DNA of 64,000 nt from a virus (lineage: Duplodnaviria; Caudoviricetes), in the IMG/VR virus record IMGVR_UViG_3300013105_000843, positions 32,001 through 96,000 of that record; one strand, written 5' to 3'. Shown here in pieces: positions 1-64,000 of this stretch. The notes under the pieces were generated by a model. The model saw nothing but the letters and a program-made list of their open reading frames with translations. It was not told where the DNA came from and did no database searches. The stretch's first letter is position 1. The number at the start of each line of letters is the position of its first letter. The position numbers were made by a program, and so were the translations under genes.

Positions 1-214
1 GCCGGCCGCAGGTTGCCTGCCTTGTGCAGGACGATGGGCTGGCCAACCTTGCCATCGAGGCGATGGCCTCGCTCGCGCTGCCGCTCCTGGAATCGCTCGC
101 GCTGCCGCGCCTGGCCGCGCGGGGTCCCCGCAGCATCGTTGCAATTGCGAGGCATTCAGCGGCATAAAGTGCCTATACCTCCATGGAATTATTCAACGTG
201 GAGGTCATAGACAA

Positions 215-607
215 ATGCTGAAACTGAAGCACATCAACGCCCTGAACCGTTTTGCCCTGCTCTACGGTTACGGCTGGCGTCGTCGACTGCTGGCGTCGCT
301 GGAACACGGCGAGGAGATGCCGGCGCGCACCTCAGAGCATGACGCGGGGTTGCTGCGGGAGCTGTTTGCCACCGCCGGCAAGGGCCTCATCGAGAAGTTC
401 AAGCCGCTCGAGGGCGGGTACGGGAAGGTGGCGTATCTGCGCAAGGACCACATGGAGCGTTTCAACACGCTCCGCGCGTGGGTGGTGAACGCCTGGCGGT
501 TGGTGGACGCCGACGGCAGGGACATCATTCAGCCGTGGTCGCACACGAGGACGGAGGCGCGCAAGACGGCGGGCGCCAACAGCATCTTCCTCATCGAGGA
601 CATCTGA
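215..607 (+). CDS. hypothetical protein
   Basis: 130-aa ORF, GGAGG upstream, followed by a terminator hairpin. Confidence 0.6.
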   Translation: MLKLKHINALNRFALLYGYGWRRRLLASLEHGEEMPARTSEHDAGLLRELFATAGKGLIEKFKPLEGGYGKVAYLRKDHMERFNTLRAWVVNAWRLVDADGRDIIQPWSHTRTEARKTAGANSIFLIEDI

Positions 608-646
608 GGTAGTCAAGCGGCGCGTGCCGTATCACAACTCCATGCA

Positions 647-680
647 CGAGGGCGAACCACTGGTTCGCCCTCTTTTTTCT
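647..680 (+). terminator. intrinsic terminator
   Basis: GAGGGCGAACC-act-GGTTCGCCCTC followed by TTTTTT, between convergent genes. Confidence 0.75.
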
Positions 681-702
681 TCCGGGTCGCGCTTACCTCG
701 CG

Positions 703-1128
703 TCAGGCGCTCGGCCACTTACCCGGGGCAGGCACTTCGCACGGGCCTTCGACGCCGATGCTCGTGAAGTCGGCCGGGCCGACGATTTCGAGATATTCCA
801 TGTCGGGCGAGTAGTCGAACAGGAAGTGGCGGATGCCCGGACGCTGGTGGACGCAGTCGCCCGCCGCGACCAGCGTTTCCTGGTCTTCGTACATGAATCG
901 CGCCCAACCCTTAAGCATGTACACGATGTGGAATTGCGCGCCGTGGATGTGCCAGCCGGTGCCGTGTTCCGGCGCCTCGTTCGCTCGCACCAGGTGCGCG
1001 ATGACCTTGCCGTTGGTCGCCTTCGCGATACCCAGGTCGCGGTACACGAAGAAATCGCGCAGGCCGCCGGCCACGAACGGGGTGCTGTCGGTCTTCACGT
1101 GGGAAAAAGTTGTCGTCTCTTCAGCCAT
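703..1128 (-). CDS. cupin domain protein
   Basis: GWHIH...FHIVYMLKGWARF...GDCVHQRPGIRH cupin motifs; start taken at MAEETT. Confidence 0.8.
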   Translation of the reverse strand: MAEETTTFSHVKTDSTPFVAGGLRDFFVYRDLGIAKATNGKVIAHLVRANEAPEHGTGWHIHGAQFHIVYMLKGWARFMYEDQETLVAAGDCVHQRPGIRHFLFDYSPDMEYLEIVGPADFTSIGVEGPCEVPAPGKWPSA

Positions 1129-1214
1129 TTTTGAGTCTCTCTGTTGGGGCGGCTTGTCCAGCCAGGATAACCGGGGCAAATCATCGGTTCGCCCGCCTTC
1201 GGTGTCCGTCCGTG

Positions 1215-1853
1215 TCACCCGCCGTTGACCAGGACACGCAGGCCAGCGGCGAATTCGTTCGCGCCGCCGTTGGCCGGATGCCGAATCTGGCCGGCGGTAC
1301 GAATGTCCATCCGGTGCAGGAGCTGCTCGGCCTTGCGTCCTACCGCCACGACCTTCGCGTGCGGGAAGGCCTGCACGAGCACGGCCATCGCGGCACGACC
1401 CAGCTGCAGCTCCGAGTCGGTCGGCGTGCGGTTCGAGTCGGGGTCGCCAGGTTTGAACGGGTGCATCGGCAGCGCGTTCCAGAGGACGGTGCGCTCGGCT
1501 ATCCCGAGGTGTTTCAGCGTCTTCCAGACAATGGTGGCGCTCGGCTCGCTGTACGGCAGGCGGCGCGTCGTCAGCCGGCCGGCGGGAACCGGCACGCGCG
1601 GAATCGCGCCGTCAAGCAGGAGCCGCTCGCTCGTGAAGGCGATGGCGCTGCGGCGCATCCCGAGGTAGCCGCTTGCTTCCCCCACCACCAGGAATTCGGG
1701 GTGGCAGTCGAAGTGGGCGGCCAAGCGCGCGAGCCGCGCGTTCGCGTCGTTGAGCGCCGTGTCCCCCGGGCACGGGTCCAGCCAGGGGTTGAAGAGCCCC
1801 GGCGTGCCGGTGGGCAACGTCGAGACGAGCCTGTCTACGAGCGCGCGTGCCAT
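1215..1853 (-). CDS. uracil-DNA glycosylase superfamily protein
   Basis: LVVGEASGYLG..SAIAFTSE, SEPSATIVW, WNALPMHP, NRTPT and IRHPANGG motifs. Confidence 0.8.
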   Translation of the reverse strand: MARALVDRLVSTLPTGTPGLFNPWLDPCPGDTALNDANARLARLAAHFDCHPEFLVVGEASGYLGMRRSAIAFTSERLLLDGAIPRVPVPAGRLTTRRLPYSEPSATIVWKTLKHLGIAERTVLWNALPMHPFKPGDPDSNRTPTDSELQLGRAAMAVLVQAFPHAKVVAVGRKAEQLLHRMDIRTAGQIRHPANGGANEFAAGLRVLVNGG

Positions 1854-1864
1854 GCTGCCCTCGC

Positions 1865-2773
1865 TCAGAAGCGAATCGTGACCGCCACGCCAACTTCGCG
1901 CGTACGGCTCTTCGATTCAGTCATCGCGTTCGCGCCGCTGGACGACACGTGCCACATGCGCGCGTACGGCGTGAACACCAGGTCACGGCCGCCGCTGTGG
2001 TACGTGATATCGACCGCCGCTTCGGCGCCGAAGCCGTGCTCGCTGACACTGGCGCCGTTACCGAGGTCAGAATACTGCCGGCCAAGAATGATGTGGCGGT
2101 ATTCGAGCCGCGGCGTGACCGTCCAGGCTTGCGCGAAACGGAACGGACGCGCGACGCCCAGGCTCGCGTAGACGCGGTGATTACGACGGAAATACTGGCC
2201 CGACCGGGCAACGCCTGAGTCGTCGAGCATCCGGTAGCCCACCCCGACGAGCAGCGCGGTCTGATAGAAGCCCGTCTGCCACTTGTAGCGCGCGTCGGCA
2301 ATGAGCATCGAGCGGTCCAGGCCGTCGACGCTGACCGAATGCTCCGGCGCGCCCGCGACCGGGCCGGAATAGCTGCTGGTGCCGCGGAAGTACGACACGC
2401 TGCCGGCAATCTCGTCACCGTTATGCAGCGTCTGCGCTACGCCGAGCTTTACGCCCGGCAGCACGGCTTCATACTTGTGCTGGCCATCGGCGCCGTCCGT
2501 CTCGTAGGATTCGTGCTCGACCGCCGCGCCGACTTCGACGCGCAGGCCAGGGGTCACCGATGCCGCAGCCGACGTCGGCGTGGGCGTGTCCGGGATATCC
2601 AGGTTCGAGGCCGGCCAGTCCTTCAGCGGGGCCTTCTGCCAGACCGGCTCCGAAGGTTGCGCCTGCTCGGGCGCGGGATACGAGCTGAAAGTAAACGTCG
2701 ACCCCTCGGCGAAGGCCGAGCCGGCGGACAGCAGTGCGGCCGCGGCAGCCGCCGCGATTGCGAGCTTCTTCAT
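1865..2773 (-). CDS. secreted outer-membrane beta-barrel protein
   Basis: Signal peptide (MKKLAIAAAA..AFA), alternating amphipathic strands, C-terminal Phe (VTIRF). Confidence 0.7.
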   Translation of the reverse strand: MKKLAIAAAAAAALLSAGSAFAEGSTFTFSSYPAPEQAQPSEPVWQKAPLKDWPASNLDIPDTPTPTSAAASVTPGLRVEVGAAVEHESYETDGADGQHKYEAVLPGVKLGVAQTLHNGDEIAGSVSYFRGTSSYSGPVAGAPEHSVSVDGLDRSMLIADARYKWQTGFYQTALLVGVGYRMLDDSGVARSGQYFRRNHRVYASLGVARPFRFAQAWTVTPRLEYRHIILGRQYSDLGNGASVSEHGFGAEAAVDITYHSGGRDLVFTPYARMWHVSSSGANAMTESKSRTREVGVAVTIRF

Positions 2774-2850
2774 GTACAGTCCTCTATCGTGTATGGTGCC
2801 TCATAGACGGATGCACGCCAGATGGTCGTCGCCCGCCGCGGAGTAGCAGT

Positions 2851-2879
2851 AATATACGTAGAAATAGCATATTCGTCAA
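2851..2879 (-). promoter_or_regulatory. sigma70-like promoter for barrel-UDG-cupin genes
   Basis: TTGACG-17 nt-TATATT on the minus strand. Confidence 0.6.
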
Positions 2880-2940
2880 CGCGAAAGCGAAAATTTTGGT
2901 TTGGAGCCCGTGGAGTGGCTGATGTTCGAGGCATGAGATA

Positions 2941-2969
2941 TTGTCTTGTTGCAATATAATAGGTATACT
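2941..2969 (+). promoter_or_regulatory. sigma70-like promoter for the RNase H operon
   Basis: TTGTCT-17 nt-TATACT. Confidence 0.55.
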
Positions 2970-3029
2970 AATCTCGCCTCAACCTATCTCAATCCGGCCT
3001 GAGGGCCATTCCGAGCGGGGACTTTACCG

Positions 3030-3961: not shown

Positions 3962-3962
3962 G

Positions 3963-8521: not shown

Positions 8522-10810
8522 TCACCGTATAGCCGCGGGCTCGACTCCCTGGCCGCCCGTCACGTACTGCGGAACCACGAGCGGCGCACCGGCCTTCGGC
8601 GCCCACTCGGCCGGCTTCGCGCAGGCAGCAACGCTGGTCGCCGGCGTGAACGGCTTGAGCACTGTGTAGAGGTCGTTCGGTTGTTGGCCGAGCCCGTTCG
8701 TGAGCATCGACAGGCGCAGGCGCATCGACGTCGTTTCAATGACCGGATGGTCGAGCGTCGAGAGCGGTTCGCGGCCCGTCGGCAGCAGCGGGCCCGGCGT
8801 GGTCCAGCCGCTGCAGCTCACTGCGCGCAGCAGGCTGATATCGTCGGCCAGCAGCTTCTGGTCGGCGGCGCGCGTGACCAGCCGGCCGAGGTCGATGGTC
8901 GCGCCCGGCCGCAGCTCGCGGTCCGAGGCCAGGATGATGGGATAGGGACTCGGTGCGATGTACAGGTGCGCGAAGTGCCGGGCCACCGGCGCGAGGAACG
9001 TGCGGACCTGCTCCTGGCTCGCACCTTCGTTTTCGTCGACGTACAGCTGCAGGATGCCGCCCGGCTTCAGGCAGCGCTTCGCCGCGCTGACGAACTCGTC
9101 GGTGTACAGCTTGTACGCGTTGAACATCATCGCGTAGGTCGACGTGTTGAAGATGAAGTCGTAGCTGCCCGGTGCGCAGTGGCGCACGAAATCGAGCGCG
9201 TCGTCGCGATGAATCGTCGCGTCGGGGCGCGCGCCGACCCGATGGTTGTACGCGGCCATCGTCGGCAGCGCCTGCAGCACGGCCGGCGAAATCTCGACAA
9301 CATCGGTGTGGGCGGAAATGAGGCTGGCGCCGAGCGCGGATTGCCCGGACCCCAGGCCAATCACCAGGCTGCGCGCCAGCGGCGCATCGACCACCTTGGC
9401 CGGAAAGAGCGCCACGGCCGTCTCGCGTTCCGTGTTGAGGAAATGGCTCAGGTGGCCGTCGACGAAGTAGACCCGGTCGAGCGGCACGTTGAGCACGCTC
9501 GCCGGAATCTGCGTGGTGCGCGCCGAGATGAAGCCAGCGGTGCTGCCGAGCACGGTCGACAGCGTCGCGCCCGTCATCCGGAGGGCCGGCAGTTCCTTGA
9601 ACGCGTAGGCCGTTGCTACCGGCTGGAAACCGACACTCACCCCCATGGCCAAGCCGACCGCGGAGGCCACCAGCCAGGTGCCCAGCGCGAGCGGACGCCG
9701 CGGCTGCGTGACCGCGAGCAGGACCAGGACGAGCAGCGCTCCCGCTGCAAGCGCGGGCCAGACTGTCAGGAGCTGCGCGCCGCATGCAATCGCGGCCACG
9801 CCGCCGGCGACGTTGCCGAGCGCCGACACCAGCAGCAGCCGGCTGACGGACACGTCCCGCGCCTCCTTCATGGCGGCCGACAGGCAGCTGAAGAGCGCAG
9901 CGGACACCATCACGGGAAGGCTGAGCAACAGGGCCAGCATCAGCGCATAGGCCTCGAGCTGGATGAACCCGGAATGCAGCAGCCACGCCGGCGCTTCCCG
10001 GTAGCAGAGGAGCCCGGCGGCGAGCCAGACCCCTACCAGCGCGCTGAGCGCGGCCGGCGAGGTTCGCCGGCCCAGGGCCACGAGGCCGCCCAGTGCGAGA
10101 GCGAGCAACACCGCGCCGTTATACAGCCCGTTGTGCATGCGGGCGGGCAGCACGATGTACTGGTAGCCCTTTAGTCCCCAGCCGATAGCGAGGTAACTGG
10201 CGATGCTGGCCAGGAAGACGGCGATGACGGCCGTGCGATGCGCACGCAGCCAGGCTCCCCACGACGGCGCGGGCTGCGTCGCCGCGTCGGTTGCCGGCGC
10301 GCGACGGAGCGCCCTCGCGACCAGCACCCCCAACCCGGTCTGGATGGTGCCCAGCGTGAGCAACACACCCGACAGCGTCGCGAACGGCAACACGAACCAT
10401 TCGAGCGCAATCACGCCGAGCGCCGCACCGAGGTGGTAGACGCCGTAGGTCAGGCCGACATGCCGACGCACGAAGTGCGCATAGAGCGGCAGGTGCACGC
10501 CGAGCGCGAGCGCGGGCGGCGCGAGCAGCGCGACGGCGGCCCAGGTCGGGAGCGTGAGCTGGGCGAGCAAGCCGAGCCGGATGCCGACGCCCAGAGCGAC
10601 GGCATAGAGCCCGGCGCCGACCTCGACGAGTGGCAGCGCGCGCCTCAGCCGGGGCGCGACGAGATTGCCGAGCGCCGAGAAGACGATGAACGAAAGCGTG
10701 GTCAGGTAGTACGTCAGGTAATAGTCGCCGTTGGCAGCGCTGACGACGCGCATGAATACGGCCTGGCTGGCCAGGCAGGCCAGCCCACTGAGCAAGGCGA
10801 AAGGGAGCAT
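8522..10810 (-). CDS. multi-pass membrane protein fused to a spermidine synthase-like SAM-binding domain
   Basis: About 12 TM helices, then LVIGLGSGQSA, DVVEISPAV, DDALDFV, SYDFIF and LYTDEF...LKPGGIL. Confidence 0.85.
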   Translation of the reverse strand: MLPFALLSGLACLASQAVFMRVVSAANGDYYLTYYLTTLSFIVFSALGNLVAPRLRRALPLVEVGAGLYAVALGVGIRLGLLAQLTLPTWAAVALLAPPALALGVHLPLYAHFVRRHVGLTYGVYHLGAALGVIALEWFVLPFATLSGVLLTLGTIQTGLGVLVARALRRAPATDAATQPAPSWGAWLRAHRTAVIAVFLASIASYLAIGWGLKGYQYIVLPARMHNGLYNGAVLLALALGGLVALGRRTSPAALSALVGVWLAAGLLCYREAPAWLLHSGFIQLEAYALMLALLLSLPVMVSAALFSCLSAAMKEARDVSVSRLLLVSALGNVAGGVAAIACGAQLLTVWPALAAGALLVLVLLAVTQPRRPLALGTWLVASAVGLAMGVSVGFQPVATAYAFKELPALRMTGATLSTVLGSTAGFISARTTQIPASVLNVPLDRVYFVDGHLSHFLNTERETAVALFPAKVVDAPLARSLVIGLGSGQSALGASLISAHTDVVEISPAVLQALPTMAAYNHRVGARPDATIHRDDALDFVRHCAPGSYDFIFNTSTYAMMFNAYKLYTDEFVSAAKRCLKPGGILQLYVDENEGASQEQVRTFLAPVARHFAHLYIAPSPYPIILASDRELRPGATIDLGRLVTRAADQKLLADDISLLRAVSCSGWTTPGPLLPTGREPLSTLDHPVIETTSMRLRLSMLTNGLGQQPNDLYTVLKPFTPATSVAACAKPAEWAPKAGAPLVVPQYVTGGQGVEPAAIR

Positions 10811-13174: not shown

Positions 13175-13996
13175 TTAGCAGTAGCCGGCGTTGAGCAGCT
13201 TGTCGGCCGCCGAGAAAGCGCGGTTGGCGAGCCGGTCCGGGATGCGCGGCTTCCTGCCGTCATCGTCGTCCAGTGCCAGCTGCACCCGCATGCGGCCTTC
13301 CTCGAGGCCCGGAATGCCCAGCGTTGCCGCGCACAGGTACGCGGCCGTCTCGGCTTCCAGGTCGCGCAGGTCGGCTTCCTGCGGCACGCTCTTGCCCGGT
13401 TCATCCGCGGTATGGCCCAGGATGATGCGGGCCATCTCGCGCAGCCGGCCATAGACCGGATGCGCATCGAGCGGCGAGACCGCAATCGCATTGCCGCCGG
13501 CCCAGCCCAGACGCTTCGTGTCCGTGACGCTCGCGAACTCGAACGCACGTTCCTGGATTTCGAGGAAGTCCAGCGCGGCCTTCACGCTCCACTCCTTGCC
13601 ATCCGGTTCCGGCGGCTGATACTCCGCGCCGGCCGTCTGCCCGAGGTGGAACCAGTAGCTGCGCAGCATGAAGCGCGTGAAGCGCTTGTGCTCGACCTCC
13701 TCGCCGGTTTTCTCGTCCTTCTTCTTCGCTTTGACGGGCACCGGCATGACCAGCGCGATGCTCGCCTTCTCCCCTTTCTGGACCGGCCGCTCGACACCCA
13801 GCCAACCCTTGAAGGTGTTGATGGGCATCAGCGGCAGTCCGCGGGCACGCAGCTGCGTGCTCGCCAGCCAGCGGTTGGTCAGGCTGTACTGATGGAAAAA
13901 GCGGTACGCGGCCGCCAGCTGGCCGGGCTCGCGCACGGCCTCTTCCAGCAGCTCGTACCAGTCGGGGCTGTCTTGACGTGCGACGGTTGCTTCCAT
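13175..13996 (-). CDS. ArdC-like ssDNA-binding / antirestriction protein
   Basis: YSLTNRWL..QL..RG....NTFKGW...R.VQKGEKA N-terminal domain; C-terminal zincin-like region with EAETAAYL. Confidence 0.75.
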   Translation of the reverse strand: MEATVARQDSPDWYELLEEAVREPGQLAAAYRFFHQYSLTNRWLASTQLRARGLPLMPINTFKGWLGVERPVQKGEKASIALVMPVPVKAKKKDEKTGEEVEHKRFTRFMLRSYWFHLGQTAGAEYQPPEPDGKEWSVKAALDFLEIQERAFEFASVTDTKRLGWAGGNAIAVSPLDAHPVYGRLREMARIILGHTADEPGKSVPQEADLRDLEAETAAYLCAATLGIPGLEEGRMRVQLALDDDDGRKPRIPDRLANRAFSAADKLLNAGYC

Positions 13997-14138
13997 GGTG
14001 TTTTCCTCCGGTTTTGAGTGCGCGCAGGCTTGTTGCATGACAAACGCGCATTTAACGATATATGTGACCTGCAGCGGAGTATAGGCGTGGAGACGGGTTG
14101 AGAAATCGGATAGACTGCCGGCCGGAGAGGAGGATGGA

Positions 14139-14618
14139 ATGGAAGGGAAACTGTGGTTCAGCCGGCTGGAACTGACGCGCCCGAGCCTGGGGCGTCCGAT
14201 GCAGTTCAACGTGACGCTAACGGGCGGCCCGACCGGCCGGCCGGGCGTCTCCGCGCTGATACTGCGCACGCCCGGGCAGCCGGGGCTCGGCTGGTGCCTG
14301 CTGGCGGACCACCCGGAAAACGACGGGGTGTCGGTGACGAACGGCGCGATGGACTATGCCGACGCGGTATGCCGCGCGCTCGAGTGCTCGCGGATGGACC
14401 TCGCCTGGTTCGAGATGGACTCGATGGGGTGCATCGACGAACTGCATCTGCTCGGTGACGAGGCACGGTTCGCGCCGGTGCACGAGCCGGACTCCAAGCC
14501 GCGGACGCTGGTCGCCTTCCTGCGGCGCGCCGAGCGGGTACTCGGCCCCCTGCCGGCGGAGTTCACGGTGGCCGTCAACGCGTGCGCGCTGCGCTTTGGC
14601 TGGCGGAATCGCGATTGA
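14139..14618 (+). CDS. hypothetical protein
   Basis: 159-aa ORF with GAGGAGG RBS; contains a G.SVTN motif. Confidence 0.65.
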   Translation: MEGKLWFSRLELTRPSLGRPMQFNVTLTGGPTGRPGVSALILRTPGQPGLGWCLLADHPENDGVSVTNGAMDYADAVCRALECSRMDLAWFEMDSMGCIDELHLLGDEARFAPVHEPDSKPRTLVAFLRRAERVLGPLPAEFTVAVNACALRFGWRNRD

Positions 14619-15016: not shown

Positions 15017-15157
15017 AAAAAAAGCCCGGCAGTGCATGCACTGACCGGGCAAAGTCTCTCGGAGGATTTTCATCCCCACCGGACTGGCCCTTGCGGGCCG
15101 CGGAGGAAACAACACAAAACTCGTTGCAGCTGCGATTCAATTTCTGCCATCCATGTG
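15017..15157 (-). ncRNA. candidate sRNA A
   Basis: TTGACA-17 nt-TAATGT at 15162-15190; ends in a GCCCGG..CCGGGC hairpin plus U7. Confidence 0.45.
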
Positions 15158-15298
15158 AAGCACATTACCGAGATAATGCTTTGATGTCAAGTTAATATTC
15201 ACAAAGTTAACTTAACTGTCATTCTGACGTTTACACGCAACACCCGCATGTAAAACGCCCACCATGCAGGTGGGCGTCAAAGAGACATCGTGCGTTGC

Positions 15299-15997
15299 TC
15301 AGGCGGCCGTGCGAGCCCGCTCGAGCAGCTGGTCGACCTGCCGGTAGAGTCCAGCAAAGTCGCCCTCGCGATTGATGAGCGTAGCGTCGACCTGCGTGTG
15401 GAGCAGCGCGATTTCCGACACATGTTCCCCGCCCGTGTACGCGACCTCGGTGCCCGGGCGAACGATGCGCACGAGCATTGCGCCCATCTCTGCCAGCGCA
15501 ACCGGCTCATTCGGCATGCGGACGTCGGTTACCAGGAAGTCGTCGAGACCGCTGACCTTTTCACAGCCCTGCCGGGTCCAGTAGTCGTCGCCGTACCGCT
15601 TGCGACGATACTCGGTGCCCCAGAGCTGGGTCACCCAGCGCGGCGAGCGCGGTGCGTCCATTGCCGCCTGCAGCTCGTCCGCAGCTACGAGCAGGGTGCC
15701 ACCCGCCCCCACTGCGCCGAGATGCATGAGCGCGACCTCCACGAACTCCTGGTCCTGGCAGTGTTTCAGCGCCAGGTAGTCCTGCTGCGTCTCTTTCAGC
15801 TCACGCTGCTCGAGACGGGCCACCGTGGTGCCGTAGGCTTTCGCCACCTCCTGCTTCAGGCTGTCCGCGAAAGCCACCCGCGTGAAGCCCTTGAGCGCCA
15901 GATAGTCCGCCACCGTATCCTTGCCCTGCGCGAGCGTCGGATAACGCATGCCGGACGGCAGGCCATCGAGGCCGCCACCAATCAGGCCGATAATCAT
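15299..15997 (-). CDS. phage-type deoxynucleoside monophosphate kinase
   Basis: MIIGL...GKDT.A, AFAD.LK, PR...Q.WGTE.RR, DYW, TDVR.PNE and H.SE motifs (T4 gp1-like). Confidence 0.85.
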   Translation of the reverse strand: MIIGLIGGGLDGLPSGMRYPTLAQGKDTVADYLALKGFTRVAFADSLKQEVAKAYGTTVARLEQRELKETQQDYLALKHCQDQEFVEVALMHLGAVGAGGTLLVAADELQAAMDAPRSPRWVTQLWGTEYRRKRYGDDYWTRQGCEKVSGLDDFLVTDVRMPNEPVALAEMGAMLVRIVRPGTEVAYTGGEHVSEIALLHTQVDATLINREGDFAGLYRQVDQLLERARTAA

Positions 15998-16010
15998 CAG
16001 GTATCTCCTT

Positions 16011-17369
16011 TCAGAAAAGGCTGGGCTGCACCGCCGGGGGCAGCGACCACGCGCGGCCGTCGGCCAGTGCTGCGAGCACGTCGCCATGGCAGAGCGCATG
16101 AGGGTTTTCTTTCGTCTTGCACCAGCAGCCGAGCCGCTTGCCCTTGAGCAGATGCACCTTGCCCAGCAACGCCTCGTTGCTTTGCGCATAGTCGGCGAAC
16201 TTCTGGACCACCTCCTCGCGCGTGCCGTCTTCCCCGATACGGAAGGGATTGGCGAACTCCGACTGCTTGAACGCACTGCCATCACCCATCTGCCGGCCGA
16301 TGTAGACGTCATACGGCTCCTCGCGTACATGCACCACGCGCGTCTCCGAGAACGACACATCCGCACCGGTGAGTGGCACCGTCCGCTTGCGCGGACCGAG
16401 CCACGGCTGCCAGGGTTCCGGGAACGAACAGTTGCTCGGCGCCTTCACGAAGAGCGGCGCGACCTGCTCGTCCTGGTAGCCCGCCAGGCCGCACCCGACG
16501 CGCGTGACAAAGAACCGCTCAGCCTCGTGCGCTTTCGCGTACGCGATGAACTTGTCGACGTACTGGCGGATGCTCTCGAGCGACAGGGTCTGTTCGGGGT
16601 CGTTGAACGATGGCCGTTCGTTGCCCGTAAGGGGCCGGCCGTCTTTCGTCGGAATGCCGAAACTCTGACCCTGTAGCCCAGCTCCCACGCCGGCCTGCGC
16701 GCCGAACTGCTCCTTTGCTACCGCAGCAGCTCCTTTGCCATGCCGTCCCGCGAGATTCGAGCCGAAGACGAACACTTCGCCGTTGCACGGCAGCGTGTTG
16801 TCCGGATGGAACTCTCGGTCCTCGGCCAGCACGTGCGCGACAAAGCGGTCGTAGCCGTCCGGCTTGGCCAGGTTGAACACAGGGATGCCCCAGCGGTCCG
16901 CCAGCACAATCGCGGTGGCCGTGCCGCCCGTGTCGCGGGTGCGCTGCGCTTCCGACTCGCAACCATCGCGGGTCCAGCACAGCACGAACGACACTGGCGT
17001 GGCGATATCCTCACCGAGCACCTGTCCTACATTGCGCGCGTGGAGACTGCGCGGGCCGCGCGTGAGGCGCTCCCACGCGGGATGAACCATCTCGGCCATC
17101 TCGTAGTGCGTTTCGCTGGGATACAGTTTCGTATCCGGATGGTCGTTGAAGCCCGGCCACGGCAGCCAGATTTCCTTGATGCCGCGGACTGCGATGCAAC
17201 CTTCCTCGAACGCCGTGTCCGCGCCGGGAGCCGCGCCGGAGCGCAGCACATAACCACGCGCGGCGAGCCTGCCCGCGAGCTTTTTCATCAGCTCCAGCAC
17301 ATGGTCGGGCGTCTCGCGCGAGCCCACGCCGGCATAGAATCGATTTGCAATACCAGTTACAGGTTTCAT
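16011..17369 (-). CDS. three-domain fusion: SLOG/DprA-like, macro-like phage domain, DUF4326
   Basis: YAGVGSRETP..LRSGAA.GAD.AFE; VFVFGSNLAGRHG.GAA..F.VT.VGCGLAG; DVYIGR..ANPF..LGCWC..CHGDVL. Confidence 0.75.
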   Translation of the reverse strand: MKPVTGIANRFYAGVGSRETPDHVLELMKKLAGRLAARGYVLRSGAAPGADTAFEEGCIAVRGIKEIWLPWPGFNDHPDTKLYPSETHYEMAEMVHPAWERLTRGPRSLHARNVGQVLGEDIATPVSFVLCWTRDGCESEAQRTRDTGGTATAIVLADRWGIPVFNLAKPDGYDRFVAHVLAEDREFHPDNTLPCNGEVFVFGSNLAGRHGKGAAAVAKEQFGAQAGVGAGLQGQSFGIPTKDGRPLTGNERPSFNDPEQTLSLESIRQYVDKFIAYAKAHEAERFFVTRVGCGLAGYQDEQVAPLFVKAPSNCSFPEPWQPWLGPRKRTVPLTGADVSFSETRVVHVREEPYDVYIGRQMGDGSAFKQSEFANPFRIGEDGTREEVVQKFADYAQSNEALLGKVHLLKGKRLGCWCKTKENPHALCHGDVLAALADGRAWSLPPAVQPSLF

Positions 17370-18013: not shown

Positions 18014-18562
18014 CTAGTGCGCCTTGCAGGCGACCTCGCCCAGCCACTCAGCCAGGATACCTGGAGCGAAGCTCGCACCGACGTGTCGCTCGAGCAGAGC
18101 GCGGTCCTCCGCGATGGCCGTATCGACGGCGGCGCGCAGTACATCGAAGTGGGCGGCGAACAGTTCTCCGTGCTGATGCCACGGTGCGCAGGCCCGCTTG
18201 GCCCTTGCCTCGAGCCCGTGCGCGTCATATACCGACCAGCTGAACACGATGAGCCAGGGCGTGGCCATGCCGGCGCCGCCCAGTTCGGCGACGCGTGTCT
18301 GCACTGCACGCCGCGTGCAGCCGAGTTTGTACAGCCCCGGCCACGAGGCATTGGCAGCCAAGTACAGATGGCCTGCGCGGGCGGCGCACCAGAGTGGCAG
18401 CCCCTCGACGAGGGCTTCGCGCTCGAGGTCACCGATTTCGCTGTCGTCGAACGTGACCGGCACGCCCCGGCGCGCCTGCTGAACCGCGCGCCGCGCTGCG
18501 GGCAGCGGCTCGAGCTGTTCGAGCACGCGCGGATGTTGCTGCAGCGGGGCCGCGCGGTTCAT
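18014..18562 (-). CDS. T5orf172/GIY-YIG family protein
   Basis: GHLYLAAN..WPGLYKLG.T.R....RVAEL..AG...PW, LE...K, GELF. Confidence 0.75.
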   Translation of the reverse strand: MNRAAPLQQHPRVLEQLEPLPAARRAVQQARRGVPVTFDDSEIGDLEREALVEGLPLWCAARAGHLYLAANASWPGLYKLGCTRRAVQTRVAELGGAGMATPWLIVFSWSVYDAHGLEARAKRACAPWHQHGELFAAHFDVLRAAVDTAIAEDRALLERHVGASFAPGILAEWLGEVACKAH

Positions 18563-19293
18563 ATCAGGTCCAGTTGCCGGACATTGGCCACTGCCCGCAG
18601 CGCCGGCCGAATCACTGACGGCGGGGACACCTGCTCAATCGGGACGCCGCGGCGCAACTGGGCGACGGCGTGGCTGATGGACGTCTTCGCGCCGTCACCC
18701 TGAAGCACTCGGGGGTGCGGGAACAGCGATTTCGCAAAGTCGACGATAGGCGAGCCATCATGGGCCAGACCGAGGCACATCAACGGCACGGGGATTTTTT
18801 CAAAGACCGTGTCGGACACCTCGGCGACTCGCCGCAAGGTCGTCTCGTGGGTCGAAAGCCCCGAGTCGGTAAGATTCGCGGTCTCGTCGGTCAACGAGAC
18901 ATGGATGGCGAGCGCGAGCCTGCCCTGTGCCTGCAAGTGCAGGAACTTGAAGATATCGCTGTAGAAACGGCCCACGTTGCCGAGCTGGACCTCCACGGCG
19001 ACCACCTGGCCGCCGCCGACCTGTCGGCAGAAGTCCACCCGCATGCCATTCGCGCCATCGCTGGCGCCGGTTGCCCGCCATTCGCGCTCCCAGCCCCGGT
19101 CTACCAGTTCCTGTTCGATGTAGGCGTTGAGCACCGGCTGCAGCACGCTTTTGGCCGCCTGCTTTTCCGACTTTCCCCGCCAGTACGGCACCGGCGTAGC
19201 CACGAGTGCGTCAAGCACACTGGCCGCGCATGCCGCCACCTGCTCGTCCCGGAGCGCGCGCTCAGTCTGGTGGTCGAAACGGATGACTTGCAT
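18559..19293 (-). CDS. BglII/BstYI-family PD-(D/E)xK endonuclease
   Basis: LQPVLN..I...L...GW, VDF, VAVEVQLGN and YSD.FKF motifs. Confidence 0.7.
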   Translation of the reverse strand: MQVIRFDHQTERALRDEQVAACAASVLDALVATPVPYWRGKSEKQAAKSVLQPVLNAYIEQELVDRGWEREWRATGASDGANGMRVDFCRQVGGGQVVAVEVQLGNVGRFYSDIFKFLHLQAQGRLALAIHVSLTDETANLTDSGLSTHETTLRRVAEVSDTVFEKIPVPLMCLGLAHDGSPIVDFAKSLFPHPRVLQGDGAKTSISHAVAQLRRGVPIEQVSPPSVIRPALRAVANVRQLDLI

Positions 19294-31606: not shown

Positions 31607-33598
<1,992 letters not shown>

Positions 33599-38543: not shown

Positions 38544-39245
38544 CTACCCGCCCAGTATTTTGACAAGCAGCGCCGCGATACCGCCCATCGCGAGCGCCGG
38601 CCCAAACGCCAACGGCTCGCAGGTGTCGCGACCGCGAAGGCGAAGCGTCACGATGACCGCCATCTGCAGCGAGCAGCCCACTGCCAGCACAACCGGTAGC
38701 GCGAACACGCCTAGCCACGCGCCGAGCGCGGCCAGCAATTTGAAGTCGCCGTAACCGAGCCCTTCCAGCCCCGTGGCCAGCCGCCAGCCCCAGTACAGGC
38801 TCCACAGCACGAGGTAGCCCACGACCGCGCCTTCCACCGCTTCCGGCAAGGGCGCGAGCACCCCGCACAGATTCACCAGCAGACCCGCCCAGATGAGCGG
38901 CAGGGTCAGGTCGTCCGGCAGCAGCCGCAAATTCAGGTCGGTCAGGGCGAGCCCCGCCAGCACGAGCACCAGGCCGCACGCGGCGAACCCCGCAGCCGTC
39001 GTGCCCATCAGCACGGGCATCGAGAGCGCAAGCACTGCGCCGGGCACCAGCACCCGGGGCCAGCGTCGGAACGCGCCGCGCGCGCAATCCCCGCACCAGC
39101 ACACCCATGGCGGGTGGCCGGAATCCAGGCCGGCGCCGCACAGCGAGCAGACTTCTCCCTCCGGCGCGGGCGCGGCCCGGGCGGCCGCTGGATGGTCGGG
39201 CTCGGGCAGAGTATTCAGGTCGGTCATCAGCGCAACGGTTGGCAT
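38544..39245 (-). CDS. A24 prepilin peptidase-like protein
   Basis: TDL...LLPD.LTLPL.W.GL, GLGYGDFKLLAALGAWLG and AFGP.LA; CxxC/CxxC pairs at the N-terminus. Confidence 0.85.
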   Translation of the reverse strand: MPTVALMTDLNTLPEPDHPAAARAAPAPEGEVCSLCGAGLDSGHPPWVCWCGDCARGAFRRWPRVLVPGAVLALSMPVLMGTTAAGFAACGLVLVLAGLALTDLNLRLLPDDLTLPLIWAGLLVNLCGVLAPLPEAVEGAVVGYLVLWSLYWGWRLATGLEGLGYGDFKLLAALGAWLGVFALPVVLAVGCSLQMAVIVTLRLRGRDTCEPLAFGPALAMGGIAALLVKILGG

Positions 39246-39413
39246 ATTACGTATTTACGAGTATATTACGCATCCGGCCGACCACCGGCAAGTCCTGTCC
39301 GCCAATCCTGCCGCGTCAACCAGCCCGATATCGCAAAACAGCCGAATTGCCCCGCGCATCGACCTATACGGTCTTGCAGCAATTTTGCTGTTTCTAACAA
39401 GAGGAAACAAAAC

Positions 39414-41645
39414 ATGAAGAACGCACTCTACAACCACACCCTCGGCAAGGACATGCTGTCCGAGTCCAAGTTCTACATGGGGTACTCCCGGTGGAACGGC
39501 GCCAAGGCGGGTTACGAGACCTGGGAAGAATCGGTCGAGCGCGTGATGCAGATGCATCGCGAGAAGTATTCCGAACGGCTGTCCCCGGAGCTGGAAGCCT
39601 ACCTGGCGAAGGCGGAGCTGGCTTACAAGAGCCAGTGGGTGCTGGGCGCACAGCGTGCCCTGCAGTTCGGCGGCGAGCAACTGCGCAAGCACGAGGCCCG
39701 CATGTACAACTGCTCGGTGTCGCATTGCGACCGGCCGGCCTTCTTCCCGGAAGCGATGTATCTGCTCCTGTGCGGCTGTGGCGTGGGCTTCTCGGTGCAG
39801 AAGCATCATGTCGCGATGCTGCCGACGCTGAAGAAGCGTTCGGCCAAGCGCGTCAAGCTGTTCCAGGTGCCGGACAGCATCGAGGGTTGGGCGGACGCTT
39901 TCGGCGTGCTGCTCAGCTCGTACTTCGGTGAGGGGCCCTTCCCGCAGTACAAGGGCTGTCATGTCCACTTCGATTTCAGCCTCATCCGTCCGAAGGGCGC
40001 GATGATTTCGGGTGGTTTCAAGGCTCCGGGACCGGACGGTCTGCGCAACGCGCTCAACAAGTGCGAAGCCCTGCTCGAGCGCACGCTCGGTGAGGCTAAC
40101 GAGGTCGCGATGCCGCCCATCGTGGCGTACGACTTCGTGATGCACATGAGCGATGCCGTGCTGGCTGGCGGTGTGCGCCGTTCGGCGACCATCTGCCTGT
40201 TCGACAAGGACGACGAGGAGATGCTGAGCGCGAAGACGGGGGACTGGTACGTCAAGAACCCGCAGCGTGGCCGCAGCAACAACTCGGTGGTGCTGATGCG
40301 TGACGAGTTGACCCGCGAGGAATGGGCGCAAATCATGAGGTCGGTTCGCGACTTCGGTGAGCCCGGCTTCATCTTCACGGAGAACAAGGAGTTCGCGTAC
40401 AACCCGTGCGTGGAAATCGGCATGTTGCCGAAGACGGAAGACGGCGAGTCCGGCTTCCAGTTCTGCAACCTGACCGAAATCAACGGCGGCAAGTGCACGG
40501 ACGAAGAGCGCTTCTACAAGGCATGCGAGGCCGGCGCCATCCTGGGCACGCTCCAGGCAGGTTACACCGACTTCAAGTACCTGACGGAAGCCACGCGTCG
40601 CATCACGGAGCGCGAAGCCCTGATTGGTGTGTCCATCACCGGCTGGATGAACAATCCGGACGTGCTGTTCGATGAAGCCATCCTGAAGAAGGGGGCGGAA
40701 ATCGTGAAGGCAACCAACAAGGCAGTGGCCAAGCTGCTGGACATCAACCCTGCCGCGCGCACCACCTGCGCGAAGCCTTCGGGCAACGCGTCGGTGCTGC
40801 TGGGCACCGCTTCGGGCATCCACGGGGAACACGCGCCGATGTACTTCCGCAACGTGCAGATGAACGAGGACGACGAAGTCGCCAAGCTCATCATGGCCAT
40901 CAATCCCAAGATGGTCGAACGCTCGGTGTGGAACAGCAATGGCACGGACGTCGTGGTCAGCTTCCCGGTCGTCACGAAGGAAGGTTCCATTTTCAAGCGT
41001 GACCTGATGGGCGTGAAGCAGCTGGAGTTCGTCAAGAAGGCCCAGCAGCACTGGGTCGAGAATGGCACCGATGTCGAGCTGTGCGTGGACAAGCATCTTC
41101 GCCACAACATCTCGAACACCATCTCGGTCGACGACTGGGAGGCGGTGGAGCAGTACATTTTCGATAATCGCCAGTGGTTCGCAGGCATCTCGCTGCTCTC
41201 GGCGTCGGGGGACAAGGGCTATGCCCAGGCTCCCTTCACCGAAGTGCATACGCCGGACGAAATCCTGCGTACGTACGGCGAGGCCAGCATGTTCGCCTCG
41301 GGTCTGATTGTCGAAGGGCTGCACGCCTTCGATAACAACCTGTGGATGGCCTGCGATACGGCGATGGGCAACGGGCTGAAGCTCACGAACGAGGCAACCG
41401 ACCTGCTCAAGCGCGACTGGGTGCGTCGCTTCAACAAGTTCGCGGACAACTTCTTCAACGGTGACCAGCAGAAGACGGCGTTCTGTCTCAAGGACTGCCA
41501 GAATCTGCACAAGTGGGTGGCCATCATGAAGAGCATCAAGGAAATCGATTTTGCCTCGGTGCTGTCCGAACAGACGTTCGTGGACGCGAATACGTTGGCC
41601 TCCCAGGCCTGCGCCGGCGGAACCTGCGAAATCAGCTTCGGCTGA
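39414..41645 (+). CDS. nrdJ: ribonucleotide reductase, probably class II monomeric (B12-dependent) type
   Basis: YNC, NPCVEI, CNLTEIN, KPSGN and C-terminal CAGGTCEI; no beta subunit adjacent; GAGGA RBS. Confidence 0.8.
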   Translation: MKNALYNHTLGKDMLSESKFYMGYSRWNGAKAGYETWEESVERVMQMHREKYSERLSPELEAYLAKAELAYKSQWVLGAQRALQFGGEQLRKHEARMYNCSVSHCDRPAFFPEAMYLLLCGCGVGFSVQKHHVAMLPTLKKRSAKRVKLFQVPDSIEGWADAFGVLLSSYFGEGPFPQYKGCHVHFDFSLIRPKGAMISGGFKAPGPDGLRNALNKCEALLERTLGEANEVAMPPIVAYDFVMHMSDAVLAGGVRRSATICLFDKDDEEMLSAKTGDWYVKNPQRGRSNNSVVLMRDELTREEWAQIMRSVRDFGEPGFIFTENKEFAYNPCVEIGMLPKTEDGESGFQFCNLTEINGGKCTDEERFYKACEAGAILGTLQAGYTDFKYLTEATRRITEREALIGVSITGWMNNPDVLFDEAILKKGAEIVKATNKAVAKLLDINPAARTTCAKPSGNASVLLGTASGIHGEHAPMYFRNVQMNEDDEVAKLIMAINPKMVERSVWNSNGTDVVVSFPVVTKEGSIFKRDLMGVKQLEFVKKAQQHWVENGTDVELCVDKHLRHNISNTISVDDWEAVEQYIFDNRQWFAGISLLSASGDKGYAQAPFTEVHTPDEILRTYGEASMFASGLIVEGLHAFDNNLWMACDTAMGNGLKLTNEATDLLKRDWVRRFNKFADNFFNGDQQKTAFCLKDCQNLHKWVAIMKSIKEIDFASVLSEQTFVDANTLASQACAGGTCEISFG

Positions 41646-59531: not shown

Positions 59532-59567
59532 TGCCTCTGTCCTGGTCTTCAAAACAGCCTGCGTATC

Positions 59568-59737: not shown

Positions 59738-59764
59738 CGCCGCTCGACACCTGAGGCGCTCGGG

Positions 59765-60109: not shown

Positions 60110-60199
60110 TCCTTTTGTTGAGGTTCCCCGTATAGCCCCGCTACGGGGCCATCACGCACACGCGCCTCGCCATTCGCCCGCCGCTCAATGCCCCGTCGC

Positions 60200-60668: not shown

Positions 60669-60672
60669 TTGT

Positions 60673-61800
60673 TCAGATGTCGTCGCTCTCGGCGGTCGCC
60701 GCCACAGCAGGCGTCGCGGCTGCCGCAGCCGACGCGCTGGCCACCGGCGCTACCTTGGCTTCGTAGCGCAGCACGGTCAGCGCCGGCAGCTCGGTATCCG
60801 CGCGCGGCACCGGCTTTACCTTTGCGTGGGCCTCGCCCGCCGCCTGAAAGCCCTTGACGGTCGCGAGTTGCGCATCGCCCAGCACATACACAGTGTGGTC
60901 CTTGTACGCGTTCACGAGCGTGCGGGCGAAGATGGGCTGGCCGCCACCGAACATGATGATGTTGTCGATGTCCGCACCATCGCCCGCGATGTTGCGCATG
61001 TAGTTCACGCTGCCTTCGATGGCCGGCTTCGCGTACCGGATGTGCTCGAGCAGGTCTTCGGTCTTGCCGTTGATTTTGATGCGCCGGCGCGCGATGGCCT
61101 TGTCCGCTGCCGTCAGGTTGTCGTACTTGACGCCAAACTTGTTCGACAGCGACTCACAGATGGCGCGCAACACCTTCGACACGCCGCCCGGATGCGCGCT
61201 GCTGCGCGCGTCGTTGATTTTCTTGCCGTTGGTCAGCAGGAAATCGAACGTCAGATAGCCCGGGTCGACCAGCAGGTTCGTCTCCTCGTCCAGGAACTCG
61301 AACTCGGGCCGCTGCTTCGCCTGCGACAGGCAGTAGTACAGCCCGCCCATCGGCTGCGGCAGCACCAGCACATCCTTCACCGTCACGGTCGTCGCGTCGT
61401 TGATTTTGTGCTCGCCCACGCACAGCGCCTTCAGGTCGTTCGCGCGATGAATCGTGGTGAGCGGCAGGCCGACGACCAGCAGGTCGATGACCGGCTCGCC
61501 GATGTAGTGCAGCGCGCCGTAGAAGACGGCCTTGTACTGGTCGCTGTAGATGTACGAATCGGAGAGGTTGCGCGTGCTGTCGTTGCTGTCGAGGTCCGCG
61601 CTGTCCGGGCCGACCTCGTAGAGCGTGCCTTCGACATTCACCACCACCGTATCGCGCTGGCCCAGCAGCGCATTCGACAGGTCGCGCCCCGTATGACGCG
61701 GGGCGAGTGACGGAAAGCTCAGAAACTCGAGCTTGCCGTCGACCAGACGGGCATATTTGGCAAAACCGGAGCCAAGGTCGAGCGGGCGGACGACAGCCAT
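60673..61800 (-). CDS. ParM/StbA-family actin-like ATPase
   Basis: LDLGSGFAK, VVGLP, V.PQP.GG, VDPGYLTFD and FGGG; promoter TTGCCA-17 nt-TATACT at 61828-61856. Confidence 0.88.
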   Translation of the reverse strand: MAVVRPLDLGSGFAKYARLVDGKLEFLSFPSLAPRHTGRDLSNALLGQRDTVVVNVEGTLYEVGPDSADLDSNDSTRNLSDSYIYSDQYKAVFYGALHYIGEPVIDLLVVGLPLTTIHRANDLKALCVGEHKINDATTVTVKDVLVLPQPMGGLYYCLSQAKQRPEFEFLDEETNLLVDPGYLTFDFLLTNGKKINDARSSAHPGGVSKVLRAICESLSNKFGVKYDNLTAADKAIARRRIKINGKTEDLLEHIRYAKPAIEGSVNYMRNIAGDGADIDNIIMFGGGQPIFARTLVNAYKDHTVYVLGDAQLATVKGFQAAGEAHAKVKPVPRADTELPALTVLRYEAKVAPVASASAAAAATPAVAATAESDDI

Positions 61801-61986
61801 AGGTCACCTCAAATTTTGGTAGCTTTTAGTATAGCATTTTGAGATTGTATTGGCAAGTTTCAGGTTAACTTAGGCAGGACTCGCGCATGACTTGCAGATG
61901 AGCGTAATTATGATATACGTCGACGCACCAGCTTAGCACGGGCGCGCGCGACAAGCAGGCGTAGCCCGCTGGCCGCGGCGCCATAC

Positions 61987-62541
61987 TCACGCCGCTACCG
62001 CCTGCTCCGGGGTCGTTTCCGCTGCTGGCAGTTGCGTGGCCCAGTCCCGGTGCATCCGCGCGTGAAATACGGTGAGCGCGGGCGGCGTGTAATACCAAAA
62101 CTCATCGAGCACGATGAATTGCGCCCGCACAAACCGGGTGAGACGCCGCGCAAGCTTGCGACCAATCAGGGTTTCGAGCTGCGCCTTCGGCCAGCCGAGC
62201 ACCCGCGGACTGGATGCAGCAAACACTCCGTCGCCCGCGCCCATCGTCGGGCCGCGCGCCACCAGTGTCGCCAGCCGGTTCAGTTCCGCGCCAGAGTAGC
62301 CGGCCCGGTACAGCCGGCGGCGCAGCTTCGTCCTCGAGAGCCTCGCGGGCGGCCGCTGCCGCGTCGACGTCGGTGTGCACGGCGGACTGACGCACTCGGT
62401 CACGCGATAGAAGGCGTCGGGATGCGTGTCGCGCGTCGGCGGCACGTCCGTCGCATCGTTCATCCAGGCATCGTGGTCGTAGTCGGGTTTCCAGCTCACG
62501 CGTACCACCTGGTCGCGCGGCATGATGCGTTTGTGGCTCAT
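61987..62541 (-). CDS. hypothetical protein
   Basis: GAGGA RBS, 184 aa. Confidence 0.55.
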   Translation of the reverse strand: MSHKRIMPRDQVVRVSWKPDYDHDAWMNDATDVPPTRDTHPDAFYRVTECVSPPCTPTSTRQRPPARLSRTKLRRRLYRAGYSGAELNRLATLVARGPTMGAGDGVFAASSPRVLGWPKAQLETLIGRKLARRLTRFVRAQFIVLDEFWYYTPPALTVFHARMHRDWATQLPAAETTPEQAVAA

Positions 62542-62562
62542 GGTGATGTGTCCTCGATGGGG

Positions 62563-63078
62563 TCAACTCTGTTCGATGCCGTACAGCCGCTGGCACCCTG
62601 CGCGGGCGCGCGTTTCCTCGGCCGCCTGCCGCAGGTACTCCTGCTCGCTGGCCCAGGAAAACATCGCGTCGGACTCGCCGGAGGTGAAGCGCCGGTTCGC
62701 CGCGCGCACCTGGTCGCGATAAGCGACGAGCCCCGGTGTTTTCTCGCAAAGCTCCGCCAGCTCCAGGCATTCGCTTTCTGCGAGCCAGTCATAGTCCTCG
62801 GCGACCAGGTGCAGCAGCGAGATGAGTGGGCGCACGAATGCGAGCCAAAAAACGACCGCGCCCAGCAAACCGCAGGCAGAGGAATGCACCACCAGCATGA
62901 CCCAGTTTAGGGGGCAGACGGGCGCATGCCCCCGACTCAGCCCCCGGCCGGCTGCCCAGGCAGCCGCGGCAAAGCCCGCGAGCACGAGCATCCCGCGAAC
63001 CAGGCCGCCAATACGGCGACGCCGGTTGATGACTGCCTCGTCGAGCAGGCGCATCGAAAATTCAGCGGTTTGTTCCAT
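62563..63078 (-). CDS. 2-TM hypothetical protein
   Basis: GAGGA RBS, two TM segments. Confidence 0.6.
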   Translation of the reverse strand: MEQTAEFSMRLLDEAVINRRRRIGGLVRGMLVLAGFAAAAWAAGRGLSRGHAPVCPLNWVMLVVHSSACGLLGAVVFWLAFVRPLISLLHLVAEDYDWLAESECLELAELCEKTPGLVAYRDQVRAANRRFTSGESDAMFSWASEQEYLRQAAEETRARAGCQRLYGIEQS

Positions 63079-63101
63079 AGGATTCCTCTCAATTTTTCAG
63101 T

Positions 63102-64000
63102 TCAACAGGTCGGCAGGTACTCGCCCGTCACCGGGTCCTTCCGCTCACCGAGGCCGACCTCCCCGACCGGCAGGACCGCGCCGCCTGACGCCTGCCGTGG
63201 CTGGCCGGGGCCCGCGCCGAGATGCGTGCGCGCAAGCTCCGTCACGATGCGCCCGCGAGGCGTGCGCTGCAGGAAGCCCTGCTGAATCAGGAATGGTTCG
63301 ACCGCATCCTCCAGCGTGTCGCGCGCTTCGCTGAGGGCCGCGGCCAACGTGTCGATGCCCACCGGGCCTCCGTCATAGAACTCGACCATCGCCTGCAGCA
63401 GGCGCCGGTCCAGGGCATCGAGCCCCCGCGCGTCGACACCGAGCATCGCAAGTGCGGCGGCCGCGTCGTCGACGCTCACTTCCACCGCGCTGCCACCACG
63501 CACCTGCGCATAATCACGCACGCGCCGCAGCAGCCGGTTCGCAATGCGTGGCGTGCCGCGAGAGCGCCGCGCCACCTCCAGCGCCGCATACGGCGTCATC
63601 ACCACACCGAGCAACCCCGCCGAGCGCGCGACAATCCGTGCCAGCTCGTCGTCGCTGTAAAACTCCAGCCGGCCGGTAATGCCGAAACGGTCGCGCAGCG
63701 GCGCCGACAGGCTGCCCGCGCGCGTGGTGGCGCCCACGAGGGTGAACGGCTCGAGCGGCACACTCACCGACCGGGCCTGCTCCCCTTCACCGACCAGGAT
63801 GTCGAGCCGGCAGTCTTCCATCGCCGAATACAGCACCTCTTCAACGACGGAGGGCAGCCGGTGAATCTCGTCAATGAACAGCACGTCTCCCCGCCCCAGG
63901 CCCGTGAGCAGCGCCGCGAGGTCGCCCGCGCGCTCGAGCACGGGGCCCGAGGTCGTGCGCAGGTTCGCGCCCAGCTCGACCGCGATGATTTGCGCAAGCG
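63102..64000 (-). CDS. ruvB: Holliday junction branch migration helicase RuvB (5' end outside the window)
   Basis: [39 protein letters not shown] and EPFLIQ.G...RTPRGR. Confidence 0.95.

Follow-up and report, generated by a model that had tools for sequence, protein, structure and literature searches.

The 64,000-nucleotide stretch of DNA analyzed here (the window; positions 32,001 to 96,000 of IMG/VR virus record IMGVR_UViG_3300013105_000843) does not contain a single GATC. In the relatives that allow the comparison, the absence is specific to the element and is not shared by host or foreign DNA; it is conserved across a family of related replicons, and it is achieved by synonymous codon choice. 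In our best reading, the window is backbone of a conjugative lineage of “tRNA-carrying megaplasmids” from Burkholderiales (soil Betaproteobacteria), and the purge is an extreme case of restriction-site avoidance by that backbone. The window also encodes an orphan nuclease of the BglII/BstYI/BamHI family, which is central to the alternative explanation that survives best.

An earlier reading of the letters alone, made by eye (the sequence-only reading), had claimed that GATC was purged from the whole window, at an estimated 65% GC. Exact counting gave 0 GATC, compared with expectations of 262 ± 15 (dinucleotide-preserving shuffles), 213 (base composition) and 204 (maximal-order Markov model), at a measured GC content of 63.8%. 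Thus, the k-mer comparison which that reading had proposed returned a count nowhere near expectation. GATC is the only 4-mer in the window depleted to this extent, the next being CTAG with an observed-to-expected ratio (O/E) of 0.48. An excess of CATC, AATC and TCGA was rejected as independent evidence, as it is the arithmetic result of the missing GATC. The full 129,556-base record also has no GATC (∼400 expected), and this includes its 33 tRNA genes, none of which uses the TTCGATCC T-loop. Because 7,293 four-letter words in the record are one substitution away from GATC, the word must arise and be removed continually.

By exact-protein look-ups, the record sits at ∼225.8–355.4 kb of a 417,768-bp metagenome contig in ENA (ERZ27252505:k141_4075589). 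We read 203.5 kb of this parent contig (contig positions 188,098–391,561), leaving ∼214 kb unread; GATC and GAGCTC both numbered 0 in the part read, and no boundary was met. All of the window (1..64000, no strand assigned) is therefore GATC-free, GAGCTC-free backbone DNA within a tract that extends over 203.5 kb or more of the 417.8-kb contig. The tract runs past the limits of the IMG/VR record, in keeping with the earlier suggestion that the window is a single coherent element, marked as such by the purge.

In order to determine how coding sequence accommodates the absence, we examined 30,247 codons using crude gene calls (GC3-based open reading frames, ORFs). Where Asp precedes a codon starting with C, GAT was used in 0 of 338 cases, compared with 20–28% GAT elsewhere. 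Where Ile follows a codon ending in G, ATC was used in 0 of 173 cases, compared with 78–82% elsewhere, and codons ending in G accounted for only 18% of those preceding Ile, versus 40% overall. Ser following an xGA codon was never encoded by TCN (0/5). Avoidance in the record’s genes is synonymous, with reading frames intact, and these counts put numbers on the earlier observation that codon pairs sidestep GATC. Mobile sequences inside the tract conform as well: two insertion sequence (IS) elements in the nuclease-positive tract have 0 GATC between them, with ∼9 expected. An IS3 copy within the tract reads CAA-ATC where a 97%-identical Burkholderia copy has its only GATC (CAG-ATC), and this CAA-for-CAG difference appears to be one observed GATC removal. 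The IS3-family element (15100–16400 of parent-contig locus L047) is 97% identical to Burkholderia plasmid copies such as that of B. savannae pMSMB0852, a likeness that hints at a Burkholderia-like host for the window’s element. This IS3 family is itself nearly GATC-free, with 0–1 sites per ∼1.2 kb; ∼4.6 would be expected in the 1.3-kb stretch counted.

The absence extends to relatives of the element. A 72%-identical ParM-like protein led to contig NZ_BDOQ01000007.1 of Novimethylophilus kurashikiensis La2-4 (C7; 225,409 bp), which has 0 GATC, compared with 748 (Markov) to ∼870 (composition) expected. In the same isolate, contigs C1 and C2 carry 85–98 GATC per 20 kb; thus, the equal depletion of host DNA that could have explained the absence is not seen in the relatives. 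A sample of the host chromosome contained 819 GATC in 176 kb, with all ten NGATCN classes present. A shortage of AGATCT in this sample (O/E 0.31) was rejected as a signal, as the four palindromic hexamers with a GATC core are all low in it. Of 120 record proteins, 29 match C7 at 27–72% identity. C7 carries F-type transfer genes (TraF, TraH, TraG, TraN and TraD), and the record’s TraD-like protein has a homolog there. C7 shows no terminal overlap that would prove it circular.

A second set of relatives consists of Variovorax megaplasmids. We rebuilt plasmid 2 of Variovorax sp. WDL1 (816,468 bp) from fetched pieces and counted 985 GATC, all of which fall in five places. Four are IS-sized segments, namely an IS5 (76.7–77.9 kb), two IS21 copies (106.2–108.5 kb and 208.4–210.6 kb) and a 2.7-kb segment at 645 kb. 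The fifth is a 139.8-kb cargo block (492.9–632.7 kb) with IS1071, catabolic and metal-efflux genes, which holds 915 of the sites. The remaining backbone (about 663–668 kb) has 0 GATC, although a neutral divergence of 1% would have made ∼122. By annotation, the GATC-free part of this plasmid holds a RepB-ParAB module, tra genes, pilus genes and a tRNA array. Twenty-three of the 120 record proteins match the plasmid, at a median identity of 39%, and none maps into the GATC-rich block. The backbone gene that led to these plasmids is the window’s class II ribonucleotide reductase gene, nrdJ (39114..41645, + strand; PHROG match 7.6e-92), which shares 78.7% DNA identity with Variovorax plasmids; the homologous Variovorax stretch has 0 GATC. 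The nrdJ homolog on NZ_LR594690.1 (84347–86767) is labeled “recombinase” in RefSeq, probably a misannotation. The proposal that GATC density could map element boundaries works on this replicon, where it assigns 985 of 985 sites to the IS-sized segments and the cargo block. GATC density thereby separates ancestral backbone from recent cargo and IS elements at base-pair resolution.

GATC is the sole word purged family-wide; other avoided words vary by lineage. The record contains no GAGCTC (the SacI site), where ∼54 are expected, and neither do the 203.5 kb of parent contig, but C7, Burkholderia-type loci and the Variovorax backbone have at least as many as expected (495 versus 227 in the last). 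This points to GAGCTC as a second avoided word limited to the window’s lineage. TACGTA (the SnaBI site) is the only other clearly avoided word on the 225-kb C7 (0 versus 15 expected), and C7 alone lacks it. Among 5-mers, the strongest deficits are those of TAGCA and TGCCA, in the record (42 versus 93 and 261 versus 348, respectively) as well as in C7 (220 versus 312 and 667 versus 804).

The element is not a phage. IMG/VR labels the record “provirus”, with a CheckV completeness of 63% and record ends that are gene ends. A PHROG scan of 20 large proteins found no capsid, portal or true terminase, 20 kb of the window had no megablast match in INPHARED phages, and the ParM-like protein had no relative in a collection of viral contigs. 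Both flanks on the parent contig carry on as GATC-free mobile DNA, with genes for a type IV pilus secretin and ATPases, HipA, an IS605 TnpB, IS3, NAD salvage and topoisomerases. Because mobile DNA of the same kind continues on both sides and the scan found no structural genes, the “provirus” limits are biologically meaningless; the call, exposed by GATC density, looks wrong, and the record looks like an arbitrary 129.5-kb slice of the 417.8-kb contig. The sequence-only reading had left the element as a phage or plasmid. Its view of a coherent mobile element stands, but a phage or provirus identity is ruled out, since structural genes were absent from the scan and the relatives are F-type conjugative plasmids. 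Besides F-type transfer and type IV pilus genes, members of the lineage have a tRNA array, a ParM-like gene for partition and a phage-like kit for DNA metabolism.

Within the window, an orphan PD-(D/E)XK nuclease gene lies at 18559..19293 (− strand; P0001, 244 aa) and carries the motif D87...E101-V-Q103. The single sequence scored 23.2 bits against Pfam Endonuc-BglII, just below the cut-off of 26, and a PDB search with it gave no match; only a profile search succeeded. We found 19 homologs, some of them carrying the NCBI name “BglII/BstYI family type II restriction endonuclease”, and in an alignment of 17 (24–67% identity), D87, E101 and Q/E103 were invariant. The family profile matched BstYI (1.2e-10), BglII (2e-5, full length), BamHI (0.022) and OkrAI in PDB and nothing else, and the catalytic motif aligned with DF...VEVQ..N of BglII. 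An AF2 model (pLDDT 88.6) gave 16 top Foldseek PDB matches, all of them BglII, BamHI, OkrAI or BstYI, at E = 2.5e-9 to 2e-6, the next match having E > 5e-3. On the strength of this model and these profiles, the gene has the BglII/BstYI/BamHI-family fold and catalytic motif, and cleavage at a GATC core is a prediction. BglII, BstYI, BamHI and OkrAI all recognize and cut NGATCN sites. A T5orf172-domain gene (18014..18562, − strand; Pfam T5orf172 29.6 bits) overlaps the nuclease stop codon (ATGA) and is probably co-transcribed with the nuclease.

A homolog of the nuclease is present on C7 (P0002; 27% identity, pairwise E 8e-14, motif kept), although its position is not syntenic with that on the record. 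Loci with closer homologs (Paraburkholderia-like, Burkholderia ubonensis, and JGI contigs of up to 699 kb) are GATC-free, the four having 0 GATC each with 23, 9, 73 and 74 expected. Among 401 sampled Burkholderiales species genomes, the only strong match to the nuclease family was in N. kurashikiensis; tblastn did not find the family in PLSDB or INPHARED, and a profile search of the whole WDL1 plasmid 2 record, at E up to 1, found no homolog. Searches with PF01555, PF02086 and PF00145 gave no D12, N6_N4 or C5 DNA methyltransferase (MTase) match on the record or on C7. A caveat to the element having no methylase is a 762-aa protein with a weak SAM-methyltransferase-fold domain (8522..10810, − strand; Pfam Spermine_synth 23.6 bits, Methyltransf_12 21.3 bits), which matches none of these three families. 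No cognate methyltransferase was found beside the nuclease, whose neighbors are unrelated genes. A conserved controller or inhibitor gene upstream was considered and rejected, as the small upstream ORFs are unrelated between members. Most family members carry a conserved, methylase-less nuclease of the BglII/BstYI family, a gene to which the sequence-only reading had not linked the purge.

In a distant clade (30% identity), the nuclease gene overlaps an N6_N4 MTase gene in an operon within phage-like DNA. This canonical restriction-modification (R-M) pair, on a JGI 3300037310 contig (locus 3083–4755), adjoins a phage sheath gene. Around the pair, GATC is enriched three-fold (107 per 11.5 kb), yet only 3 of the 107 are RGATCY and none is GGATCC. 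The scarcity of RGATCY suggests a BstYI-like specificity for this clade, and it is the sole indirect hint at GATC-core cleavage by the family.

We favor an account in which purifying selection on the DNA sequence itself would keep the backbone absolutely GATC-free across the lineage, any new GATC being removed through the choice of synonymous codons, neighboring codons and tRNA T-loop variants. Most likely, this is because even one GATC would expose the plasmid to double-strand cleavage by a GATC-directed endonuclease when it is unmodified duplex in a new cell. We consider it somewhat probable that the avoidance is driven mainly by GATC-directed nucleases met on transfer. We infer that cleavage is the selective agent and that it is encountered mainly in recipient cells and not through the plasmid’s own nuclease. 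In favor of an external agent, the elements are conjugative, and they avoid further 6-mers specific to each lineage, which indicates that restriction acts on these plasmids generally. In addition, the plasmid’s own nuclease is not required for the purge, because the Variovorax plasmid keeps a backbone with 0 GATC while lacking a homolog.

Several observations weigh against this account. The DpnII/MboI and MutH/Sau3AI families were not found in N. kurashikiensis, and among the 401 sampled Burkholderiales species genomes they occurred in one and in one or two, respectively, other GATC-directed enzymes not being searched for. With the known GATC enzyme families so rare, external pressure looks weak for an absolute purge. 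The tolerance of 140 kb of GATC-rich cargo by the Variovorax plasmid means that GATC is not lethal in every host. Other 4-mers are unpurged, so that a pressure directed at GATC has to be special. The record and C7 have no DNA MTase of the three main families searched, and the conservation of a GATC-family nuclease is unlikely to be coincidence if that nuclease is uninvolved. A published analysis, moreover, reports weaker target avoidance in large plasmids than in small ones, with a reliance on methylases (PMC10359461). The sequence-only reading had attributed the purge to evasion of GATC-directed restriction or of Dam-dependent systems; strong, long-term, element-specific selection is upheld, but these agents are candidates, and the DpnII/MboI and MutH/Sau3AI families are rare in the order.

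The best-surviving alternative, which like the favored account amounts to avoidance of cleavage at GATC, is that the purge is self-imposed. The methylase-less nuclease would cut GATC or a GATC core, and the plasmids would have erased all targets instead of methylating them, leaving the plasmid as the only immune DNA in the cell and the enzyme free to act on competing plasmids, phages or the host. Any GATC on the plasmid would then be suicidal, which would explain an absolute purge. We regard this explanation as possible but rather unlikely. Profile and fold searches with the nuclease return only the four GATC-core enzymes, and every locus with the orphan clade is GATC-free (record, C7, Paraburkholderia-like, B. 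ubonensis and JGI), whereas the methylase-linked clade sits in GATC-rich DNA. No D12, N6_N4 or C5 MTase accompanies the gene on the record or C7. The lone nuclease-free member is also the one that bears GATC in IS-sized segments and cargo, while IS elements in the nuclease-positive tract carry none and the IS3 copy is altered at its relative’s only site. This correlation between nuclease and cargo rests on very few independent lineages, and the Variovorax backbone, at 0 versus ∼122 with no nuclease, requires either that the gene was lost very recently or that another pressure suffices. Solved relatives of the nuclease cut 6-bp sites, and if its predicted specificity were of this kind, not every GATC would need to be gone. 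The host chromosome is full of GATC with no evident protecting methylase, so a freely active cutter should kill the host, and no conserved controller or inhibitor gene was found next to the nuclease. The gene is also non-syntenic and only 27% identical between the record’s element and C7. A broader form of the same idea, to which we give similarly tentative credence, is methylase-free restriction, in which a GATC-core endonuclease would separate the plasmid from rival plasmids, phages, incoming cargo and potentially the host chromosome by sequence content and not by epigenetic marking, and GATC-bearing IS elements and cargo would accumulate once the nuclease was lost, as in Variovorax.

Alternatively, methylation itself could be the target, with Dam-methylated GATC on the plasmid exposed to DpnI-like or Type IV-like restriction, MutH nicking or SeqA sequestration. 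D12 (Dam-class) MTases are present in 56 of 381 sampled Burkholderiales species genomes, ∼20 of which have strong Dam-like scores, and N. kurashikiensis has one, in an integrase-flanked island. GATC counter-selection is said to be tied to Dam and MutH in enterobacteriophages, a precedent taken up below together with PhiX174. The N. kurashikiensis enzyme was rejected as a true Dam, as it scores 59 bits against an NCBIfam dam cut-off of 115, so that any GATC specificity is putative. The MutH/Sau3AI family is essentially missing from the order (1–2/401) and was not found in the cultured host, and this explanation has no role for the conserved BglII-like nuclease. We consider it improbable. The island that holds the D12 gene (N. 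kurashikiensis C3:358000–374000) also has adjoining genes for a DUF87/HerA-like ATPase, a nucleotidyltransferase and an HD protein, and from its gene content it looks like a defense island. The sole N6_N4 MTase of N. kurashikiensis is a Type III Mod subunit unrelated to the MTase of the distant nuclease clade, and a split R-M system with its methylase on the host chromosome was rejected.

A non-selective absence, whether from host-wide compositional or mutational bias or from an assembly or sequencing artifact, is refuted in the relatives by contrasts between element and host and is exceedingly improbable: GATC-bearing host contigs lie beside the GATC-free 225-kb contig of N. kurashikiensis, GATC-rich cargo and IS-sized segments share a replicon with the Variovorax backbone, the same absence recurs in independent ENA, Logan, JGI, NCBI and PLSDB assemblies, and the avoidance is synonymous with reading frames intact.

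Three other genes of the window have counterparts on the relatives. The ParM/ALP-type actin-like partition protein that led to C7 is encoded at 60673..61800 (− strand; Pfam ALP_N 86 bits). A protein with a weak ArdC-N-like (anti-restriction) domain (13175..14269, − strand; Pfam ArdcN 22.4 bits against a cut-off of 22.6) has a 53%-identical homolog on C7. A three-part fusion of a DprA-like domain, PHROG 2072 and DUF4326 (16011–17369, − strand) is common to C7 and the Variovorax plasmid.

The nearest described replicons are the tRNA-carrying megaplasmids pWDL1-1, pPBL-H6-1, pSRS16-1 and pPBL-E5-1 of linuron-degrading Variovorax (Ozturk et al. 2020, PMC7313664), a paper in which GATC is unmentioned (0 occurrences). 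Variovorax megaplasmids of this kind share with the record nrdJ (75–79% DNA identity), an RF-like protein, topoisomerase II and ligase, and likewise combine a GATC-free backbone with a tRNA array and with genes for F-type transfer and type IV pili. They differ in being distant kin, with GATC-rich catabolic cargo and no BglII-like nuclease, and in having an annotated RepB-ParAB module where the window has a ParM-like gene.

Avoidance of restriction sites was reportedly described by Sharp in 1986, and the genome of Staphylococcus phage K is reported to be GATC-free. The phenomenon is documented in phages and plasmids (Rusinov et al. 2018, PMC6286503), and Shaw, Rocha and MacLean (2023, PMC10359461) found that avoidance weakens with plasmid size, large plasmids carrying methylases instead. 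As in those cases, a short palindrome is rare in the mobile element and not in its host, and it is removed synonymously. The present family differs in the completeness of the removal, with 0 sites for a 4-bp word over 225 kb of C7, more than 203 kb of the parent contig and a Variovorax backbone of 668 kb, and in the lack of both a cognate enzyme, among the families searched in hosts, and an MTase of the three main families. It thereby contradicts the general rule that purging short targets is not open to large plasmids, which use methylases instead (PMC10359461). We found no earlier report of the complete removal of a 4-bp word from a 225–668-kb plasmid backbone across genera. While restriction-site avoidance and GATC-free phage genomes were already known, the replicon type, the scale, and the pairing of a methylase-less nuclease with a site-rich host set this family apart.

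In enterobacteriophages, GATC counter-selection is said to have been linked to Dam and MutH, by McClelland in 1985 and by Deschavanne and Radman in 1991. PhiX174 is described as devoid of GATC in PMC5014478. The likeness is that GATC is specifically removed from a mobile replicon; the difference is that the hosts here are betaproteobacterial and the MutH family was essentially not found in them.

The nuclease invites two further comparisons. With BglII, BstYI, BamHI and OkrAI it shares a fold, the D...E-x-Q/E motif and profile-level similarity. In contrast to those enzymes, no MTase was found with it, its replicon is GATC-free rather than protected by methylation, and its specificity is predicted. 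If the self-imposed explanation were true, a mobile element would distinguish its own DNA from foreign DNA through a missing word and not through methylation. The link to the nuclease is directly testable; one carrier, N. kurashikiensis La2-4, is in culture. The closest parallel would be PacI, cited in Ershova et al. (2012, PMC3488263) as a solitary restriction enzyme whose host genome is without its 8-bp site. There too an enzyme without a methylase leaves self-DNA safe because the site is absent; but the whole PacI host lacks a rare 8-bp site, whereas here only the plasmid lacks a 4-bp word and the chromosome is full of it.

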